From an uncultured Candidatus Rokubacteria bacterium (lineage in GTDB: Bacteria; Methylomirabilota; Methylomirabilia; Rokubacteriales; CSP1-6), in contig CAVYTA010000007.1 in NCBI GenBank assembly GCA_963771355.1, positions 32,001 to 96,000 on the forward strand: a DNA stretch of 64,000 nucleotides. Reading direction: 5' to 3'. Shown here one piece after another: positions 34,068 through 34,892 of the stretch. How positions within the stretch are numbered: the first letter of the stretch is position 1; every line of letters starts with the position of its first letter. The position numbers and the translations under genes were made by a program. The notes below the pieces were generated by a model. That model did no database searches. It saw only the letters and a program-made list of their open reading frames with translations, and was not told the origin of the DNA.

Positions 34068-34892
34068 ATGCCCACGGTCCGACTGCGCGACGCCTCCGAG
34101 TATCCCGATCCCGCCCAGAAGCTCTTCGAGCTGTCGAAGAGCTGGTTTAACCACGACTTCAAGCACCCGCCCGCGATGAGCCGCGTCATGGCCTGGGATC
34201 CCGAGTTCGGTGGCCCGCATGGACGCGCGATGAAGCGAGCCATGGCGCCGGGGGAGTGGAGCCGCGGTGAGAAGGAGATGGTGGCGGCGGTCGTCAGCGG
34301 GGTCAATGCCTGCGCCTACTGAACGCTGGCGCATACTGCAGCCGGGAAGCTGCAGGGGATGGAGGGTGATCACCTCTGGTACGAGGCCGCCCACGTGGTC
34401 GGGATCACCAATGCGCTGAACGTGGCCGCGGATGGTCTGGCCGCGCTGCCCACGGTGACGGCGCTGCTGCCTCCGGTGGCGGAGGCGCAGGCGGGCGACA
34501 CGGCGGGGGATCTATTCGCCGAAATCCGCGCCTTCTACGCTCGCGGGGACGTGCCGCCGGTTTTCCGACTGCTCGCCCGCGACCCGGCCTATGCTGCCGA
34601 CGTGTGGGCGGCGACGCGCCGGGCCTTCGGGGACAATCGGCTCGCCCGGCGGTTCAAGGAGGCGCTGGCTTTCGCTGTCTCCCTGACCTCGCGCTCCGAA
34701 TGGGGCACGGGCTTTCACCTGGCGGAGATGAAGCGGCTGGGGGTGGGGGACGGCGGGGTGATGGAAGTGATCGGCGTCACGCAGATGTTCTCGAGCTATA
34801 CCAAGATCGCCGACACGCTCCAGCTCGAACCCGACATGGGCGACATCGCCCCGGTGGACGATTCACCCGCGCCCGGAGGGGCCCCGCGCTAG
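34068..34892 (+). CDS. CMD/AhpD-like selenoprotein (TGA at 34320-34322 read as Sec, CxxU)
   Basis: Two same-frame ORFs joined by one TGA: EMVAAVVSGVNAC-A-Y-U-TLAH; SD AGGAG; hairpin downstream of the TGA. Confidence 0.82.
34336..34355 (+). promoter_or_regulatory. Putative bacterial SECIS hairpin
   Basis: Perfect stem CTGCAGC / GCTGCAG with G-containing loop CGGGAA, 13 nt after the UGA. Confidence 0.7.

Follow-up and report, generated by a model that had tools for sequence, protein, structure and literature searches.

A Tandem AhpD/CMD-like Protein with a Predicted Selenocysteine in the First of Two Fused Domains from an Uncultured Rokubacteria Bacterium

The Locus and Its Reading Frame

The window, by which we mean the whole stretch of DNA analyzed, comprises 64,000 nucleotides from an uncultured Candidatus Rokubacteria bacterium (assembly GCA_963771355.1, contig CAVYTA010000007.1, positions 32,001 to 96,000 of the forward strand). 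On inspection of the sequence, two open reading frames (ORFs), 34041–34322 and 34359–34892, lie in the same frame with one intervening stop, a TGA at 34320–34322. The original prediction had taken them for one gene split by a single TGA at codon 85, and coordinates and translation confirm this. The TGA is codon 85 counted from the ATG at 34068 and codon 94 counted from the GTG at 34041. Reading through it from the ATG yields 274 amino acids, and the full tandem AhpD/CMD-like gene (34068–34892, forward strand), with TGA read as selenocysteine (Sec), is delineated by this read-through, by orthologs and by a structural model. ATG 34068 is the better start, since it has an AGGAG ribosome site, GTG 34041 is embedded in the ThiS gene upstream, and the sequences of close orthologs start with M-P/A-T-V-R. 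A promoter and a terminator were looked for, and none was found for this gene.

Domain 1 (34068–34451, approximately residues 1–128, forward strand) is the AhpD-like domain expected to be redox-competent and contains E70 (34275), C82 (34311), Y84 (34317), U85 and H89 (34332). The TGA (34320–34322, forward strand), the predicted Sec codon, occupies the second Cys position of the CxxC motif, as first proposed, in the context VSGVNAC-A-Y-[TGA]-TLAH. A SECIS-like hairpin follows on the same strand at 34336–34355 and overlaps the codons for T90 to Q96. Domain 2 (34452–34841, approximately residues 129–258, forward strand) aligns as a homologous repeat without the CxxC, with E198, S210, G213 and H217 at the E/C/U/H positions; the original observation that this repeat has lost both Cys residues stands, as SLTSRSEWGTGFH has no Cys.

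Immediately upstream lies a ThiS/MoaD-like gene (33809–34057, forward strand) whose product ends in GG followed by an RAR extension, so that processing would be needed for a sulfur-carrier role. Two small paralogous ORFs, 34889–35209 and 37022–37282 (−), carry an H-x-x-C … C-x-x-C pattern with no Pfam or NCBIfam match, and the former is kept in all seven congeneric loci. Elsewhere in the window are an rRNA operon (22501–27619; 16S, tRNA-Ile, tRNA-Ala, 23S, 5S) and, at 39329–43333, genes for a CnbZ-like deaminase (above cut-off), a TauD-like dioxygenase and an HpaB-like monooxygenase, which suggest aromatic catabolism.

Recoding of the In-Frame TGA

Comparative evidence indicates that codon 85 is almost certainly recoded as Sec. 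In 62 of 62 related genomes, compared at nucleotide level down to 42% identity, this codon is TGA and never TAA or TAG; the genomes are distinct and were picked non-randomly, as best matches plus genus spread, and the extra stops seen in five of the alignments are all terminal. Furthermore, a search of 251 genomes of the phylum with the family profile matched 112 genomes, and every one of the 121 near-full-length matches among the 140 listed contains one TGA. The gene is present in 104 of 158 genomes of this family of uncultured soil bacteria. One match to a paralog subfamily bears a Nitrospinota name, and one paralog copy (L214) is degenerate.

Cys at the Sec position is found in single-domain proteins only, where the codon is TGC (L051, L053, L208 and L209); single-domain Sec forms occur as well (L211 and L212). 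No full-length tandem homolog with Cys was present among the matches listed (120 of 1284, 120 of 213 and 93 of 93). A scan of genome contigs used a pattern that required Cys, and it returned single-domain Cys homologs only and is blind to tandem Sec forms outside the phylum.

The genome, which is 99.8% complete, encodes selA, selB, selD and tRNA-Sec, all above curated cut-offs (555, 367, 266 and 69 bits, respectively), with the tRNA-Sec also found by ARAGORN. Three of these, selA, selB and tRNA-Sec, lie within 5 kb on the window's contig, at a distance of ~45 kb from this gene; selD is elsewhere, on a different contig. Thus, the two points on which the original prediction had staked itself, Sec machinery in the genome and a TGA kept in relatives, both turned out in its favor. 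The sequence features of bacterial SelB/SECIS recoding are in place, namely a conserved UGA at a Cys site, a conserved 3′ stem-loop with G in its loop, and selA, selB, selC and selD. Among 23 genomes with the gene, selB is present in 20; the remaining three (78%, 89% and 95% complete) are missing selA and tRNA-Sec as well. This result counts against recoding, though a missing contig fits it; since selA, selB and tRNA-Sec are clustered within 5 kb in the genome studied here, the loss of one contig could suffice in each case.

These three incomplete genomes, together with the filing of the C-terminal part in public records as a separate protein of ~177 residues, would suit a reading in which the TGA is a true stop, so that the locus would be a pseudogene, a pair of distinct small genes or the product of a sequencing error. 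We regard this as extremely improbable: a TGA held to 42% identity with no TAA or TAG argues against it, as do the invariance of the stretch from the TGA to the following Met (H89, AAGKL), the poor conservation of that Met (M98, 14 of 23 orthologs) and the catalytic helix, which a stop would sever. Recoding of the TGA as Sec is therefore retained, and it corrects a systematic annotation error in which public records carry only the inactive tail. In four database proteins (P0035, P0036, P0042 and P0119), the start of domain 1 is joined to domain 2 with the TGA region skipped; these are probably artificial, produced by a splicing gene caller that dodged the Sec codon. A further record, P0122, appears error-laden.

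Decoding of UGA as Trp was set aside, as the genome encodes tRNA-Trp(CCA) and TGA ends many of its genes. Metatranscriptome contigs from four of 24 listed runs (three studies) cover pieces of the gene with unvaried TGA letters, and we give them no weight, as such contigs carry neither strand nor level and may derive from DNA.

SECIS-like Hairpin

The perfect 7-bp hairpin with a CGGGAA loop that was originally predicted to begin 13 nt past the TGA is found at 34336–34355, with the stem CTGCAGC/GCTGCAG, and it is present in both the minimum free energy and centroid structures of three of three folded fragments. In this 70% GC DNA, the folding energy of the region shows no excess over chance (z of 0.13, −0.43 and −0.64). 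Perfect 7-bp hairpins of the same geometry follow 41 of 10,209 TGC and 83 of 19,529 TGG control codons in the genome (~0.4%), and 18 of 2,004 TGA codons that have coding-like upstream sequence. At the gathering threshold, Rfam reports rRNA and tRNA only in the window, with no SECIS family.

Conservation is more telling. The 16-nt core of the hairpin is identical in 58 of the 62 genomes and differs in the other four by a single A>G, which turns an A-U into a G-U pair. Within the stem, ACT is used in 55 and GCA in 58 of the 62 genomes, codons that make up 3.0% of Thr and 3.2% of Ala codons genome-wide; outside the hairpin, none of 63 conserved degenerate columns prefers a codon ending in A or T, and the mean share of the majority codon is 0.62 (23 orthologs). 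Because the core is conserved and rare codons are fixed in the stem, unlike columns elsewhere, these codon-level patterns indicate that the hairpin is under selection as RNA, with the caveat that it coincides with invariant amino acids. Covariation is slight (four of seven stem pairs invariant, two cells with a two-sided change), since the stem hardly varies. The element is a nearly invariant and unusually clean predicted SECIS for this phylum.

The gene has company in its own genome. Eighteen matches to the CMD family are found there, six of which (this gene and five others) have one in-frame TGA, each as C-x-x-TGA followed by a 7–9-bp hairpin from 11–13 nt downstream. Several Prx-, DsbA- and FDH-like genes likewise have TGA at a redox Cys and a similar hairpin. 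Hand-picking gave ~28 selenoprotein candidates in the genome, with mostly motif-based labels: six AhpD/CMD, ~10 Prx/TlpA-like, two DsbA-like, three FDH-like, four with U-G-S-C, and one each rhodanese-like, OsmC-like and CoA-transferase-like (positions include C6:274454, C5:823978, C6:2682477, C5:32287, C6:1251416, C5:239367, C6:246854, C6:327815, C6:1429282 and C6:282818). De novo selenoprotein scans gave noisy output for this genome (329 and 85 rows), which serves only to supply leads. For one genome of the Methylomirabilota/Rokubacteria phylum, assembled from a metagenome, 63 selenoprotein genes have been predicted (PMC13188914).

A separate candidate outside the window is a CoA-transferase-fold subunit (PF01144; C7:248358–249227, L248–L249) whose codon 105 is an in-frame TGA (H-S/T-U-P) and whose hairpin is conserved. 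Across 21 loci compared, this position is TGA in 18, Cys in one and Asn in two. Such a selenoprotein was not found in the accessible part of the 2026 catalogue (PMC13188914), and its novelty exceeds that of the AhpD-like tandem.

Domain Architecture and Active Site

By Pfam match, motif and fold, the protein is a CMD/AhpD-like CxxU selenoprotein. PF02627 (CMD) matches above its gathering score (49.2 versus 23 bits) in two stretches, with the CxxU, and the AhpD core model TIGR00778 scores 35.9 bits against a cut-off of 27.8. Below cut-off are TIGR01926 (58.8 versus 81.8 bits), NF041238 (AhpD_rel_CFYUT; 32.5 versus 175) and TIGR00777, the M. tuberculosis-type AhpD (15.4 versus 191.95), and ahpC is not adjacent. 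Neither NF041047 (the GSU3128 family) nor TIGR02425 (PcaC, 4-carboxymuconolactone decarboxylase) matches the protein, and TIGR02425 picks up only one of the 29 members of the family (E 5.5e-4). E70, C82, Y84, U85 and H89 are invariant in all 62 genomes, and by residue spacing they correspond to the relay of Glu, Cys, Tyr/His, Cys and His as set out in the PA0269 study (PMC3141380).

The two halves of the protein are homologous (hhalign probability 99.8; BLASTP 27% identity, E 5e-6). An AlphaFold model built from a 29-sequence alignment (pLDDT 92.9, pTM 0.91; 38.5 for a single-sequence run) has a tandem AhpD/CMD fold, and its matches include 2q0t (Z 19.8), Bmp8 (16.7), 2pfx (16.3), 1gu9, the M. 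tuberculosis AhpD (15.9), and Sestrin2 (9.1). Repeat alignment and model thus support the two-domain protein of 274 residues that had been proposed, with Sec insertion and enzyme activity as predictions. C-x-Y/F-TGA recurs in domain 1 of related tandem subfamilies at 24%–30% identity, where the hairpin sequence is different.

A tree of 58 domain rows draws on 18 single-domain proteins, L210 and 19 of the 29 proteins in the alignment. A branch with support 96/92 has all 20 second domains to one side of it, and the first domains have no supported grouping (55/17). A single duplication may lie behind the tandem family, with the caveats that this tree has no root and that degeneracy can draw domains together.

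Domain 2 is conserved nearly as well as domain 1. Its motif, S-x-x-G-x-x-x-H, has no Cys, and S210 (61 of 62 genomes), G213 (62 of 62) and H217 (62 of 62) stand where domain 1 has C82, U85 and H89; E198 is kept in 52 of 62. This conservation could mean that Glu-Ser-Gly-His forms an additional site, for ligand binding or non-redox catalysis, and that the protein is bifunctional or regulated, and Sestrin2 has a comparable active-plus-dead layout with a repurposed second domain (PMC4674687). We think such a site unlikely, as the tandem subfamily L067–L072 lacks the domain-2 Glu and has the His shifted or gone, and helix-packing constraints could account for the conservation. The broader proposal of a Sec-only, lineage-wide pseudo-dimer family whose halves would divide labor between selenol redox (domain 1) and a Glu-Ser-Gly-His ligand or non-redox pocket (domain 2) is likewise a speculative one. 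We prefer to see domain 2 as a structural, pocket-forming half that likely does the job of the other subunit in the homodimeric ancestor, since single AhpD-like domains assemble into dimers and hexamers (PMC3141380).

Gene Neighborhoods and Proposed Function

No neighbor is universal across the 62 loci (flanks of 1.5–4 kb), and neighbors vary by genus. A lytic transglycosylase gene flanks 21 loci and a ThiS/MoaD gene 19, both as here, and an AlkZ-related gene flanks nine; the counts come from kin genomes that are not independent and carry no statistical test. The beta subunit of ferredoxin-thioredoxin reductase (FTR-beta) is encoded in 13 of the 62 loci, 12 of them with a U-G-P/G-C glutaredoxin, and none was found in the genome studied here. 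In these 12–13 genomes of five genera (L230:2964–4422, L034, L229, L201 and others), a Sec-glutaredoxin (U-G-P-C) and FTR-beta, often with RidA, are followed by the selenoprotein and a TPR gene, possibly a ferredoxin-fed Sec redox chain. At four other loci (L066, L069, L070 and L218), tandem AhpD-like Sec paralogs adjoin TGA-containing OsmC-related genes (NF041052), with TGA-containing Prx-like genes nearby. One genome, G045, has two copies of the selenoprotein gene 5 kb apart.

The ThiS/MoaD-like gene just upstream, syntenic in 19 of 62 genomes of four genera and here ending 10 nt before the start, raises the idea that the selenoprotein is a sulfur/selenium-transfer or persulfide-reducing partner of that carrier. 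We hold this to be very unlikely: the ThiS/MoaD gene travels with the lytic transglycosylase gene, it is gone from two congeners (G001 and G004) that retain both flanking genes, and other loci have FTR/Grx, AlkZ-related or other neighbors in its place. On gene order, the adjacency looks like inherited synteny.

Recurrent Sec redox neighbors favor a thiol-redox role. We predict, by analogy with characterized relatives, that the protein most likely acts as a selenol-dependent peroxide or disulfide reductase, a functional assignment made with moderate confidence. By the established bacterial pathway, SelB with Sec-tRNA would bind the hairpin, and the UGA would be recoded to Sec85. By AhpD chemistry, Sec85 would then attack either a hydroperoxide or a disulfide in a partner protein (a peroxiredoxin, for example), Cys82 would resolve it to a selenenyl-sulfide, a Glu70-His89 relay with Tyr84 would shuttle protons, and a cellular thiol system would re-reduce the selenenyl-sulfide. 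In a Burkholderia AhpD, the first Cys is more important than the second (PMC6626918), which counts against chemistry centered on Sec85.

The same C-x-x-U could instead serve reductive dehalogenation or another aromatic or xenobiotic catabolic step, in the manner of Bmp8. The Bmp8 debrominase is the second-best fold match (rmsd 2.7, 179 aligned residues), the family profile weakly matches 2-haloacid dehalogenases (E 2e-7), and in two genomes (G045 and G039) a copy that is 44%–46% identical is directly followed by a reductive-dehalogenase-like gene (TIGR02486, 156.6 and 158.6 bits against a cut-off of 160.35), at loci that also contain acyl-CoA ligase and ABC transporter genes. Nevertheless, among 247 loci such a neighbor is confined to these two related genomes, the genome studied here lacks it, fold ranks 2–5 lie within 1.5 Z, and the full AhpD relay is retained; we therefore judge a dehalogenase role improbable. 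The reductive-dehalogenase-like genes (L062:8144–9271 and L065:6340–7467), each right after a distant copy of the selenoprotein gene, share an operon with genes for an acyl-CoA ligase, an ABC transporter and a TetR protein.

On balance, our preferred account is of a single gene with a TGA that is almost certainly Sec, encoding a fused AhpD pseudo-dimer of 274 residues, a likely antioxidant enzyme that would act as a selenol-dependent peroxide/disulfide reductase with one active site, and we lean toward it with some reserve.

Comparison with Known Systems

Selenoproteins with CxxU in an AhpD-like CMD domain were, as the original prediction had it, already known (PMC1088965, PMC13188914): they were predicted in 2005 from Sargasso Sea data (PMC1088965) and are among the commonest selenoprotein families in GOS (PMC2398784). 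The "AhpD-like 2"/CMD (PF02627) and "AhpD-like protein" (COG2128/TIGR01926) families have the same CxxU in the AhpD/CMD helix hairpin and, downstream, a SECIS-like hairpin whose small loop contains G (PMC1088965, PMC2398784, PMC13188914 Table 1). The protein described here differs from them in being a 274-residue tandem of ~130-residue domains, of which only the first is redox-competent, and in lying below the TIGR01926 and NF041238 cut-offs. It is thus a known kind of selenoprotein, and its new part is the fused active-plus-dead architecture, a modest variant that reveals no new kind of system. No tandem active-plus-dead AhpD selenoprotein is described in the literature searched, and BSepDB, a groundwater MAG selenoproteome or supplements may list the family. 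In the accessible part of the 2026 catalogue, AhpD-like/CMD families are predicted and none is in the experimentally verified part (PMC13188914), which makes the protein a candidate for a first assay.

Among Cys proteins, the best sequence match is the Rhodospirillum rubrum AhpD core protein (PDB 2OUW; family profile E 5e-25, domain 2 alone 8e-17; rmsd 1.8–2.1 over one domain). Like the single-domain CxYC homologs, 2OUW is a single, oligomerizing CxxC domain, of 138 residues, whereas the present protein joins two copies, of which one carries Sec and the other lacks Cys. The relay spacing (E, C+12, Y/H, C/U, H) is the same in P. aeruginosa PA0269, a Cys-dependent peroxidase of weak activity with E36, C48, Y50, C51 and H55 (PMC3141380), and in M. 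tuberculosis AhpD (1GU9), in which the equivalent of Sec85 is Cys133, the exposed residue linking to AhpC. Both are Cys enzymes, whereas the present protein has Sec and no neighboring ahpC.

For the whole chain, the best fold match is the tandem CMD-family protein Bxe_B0980 of Burkholderia xenovorans (2Q0T; rmsd 2.7 over 226 residues), likened by fold alone at 13% identity. The likeness to the Bmp8 debrominase and group I haloacid dehalogenases is one of fold plus weak profile similarity. In human Sestrin2, too, a single chain holds a pair of AhpD-like domains, of which the first is redox-active and the second has no catalytic residues (PMC4674687); its domains are larger and have a single Cys and no Sec, and the resemblance is an architectural analogy only. 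If the division of labor between the two halves proved true, the pseudo-dimer would represent, among bacterial selenoenzymes, a counterpart to the Sestrin design.
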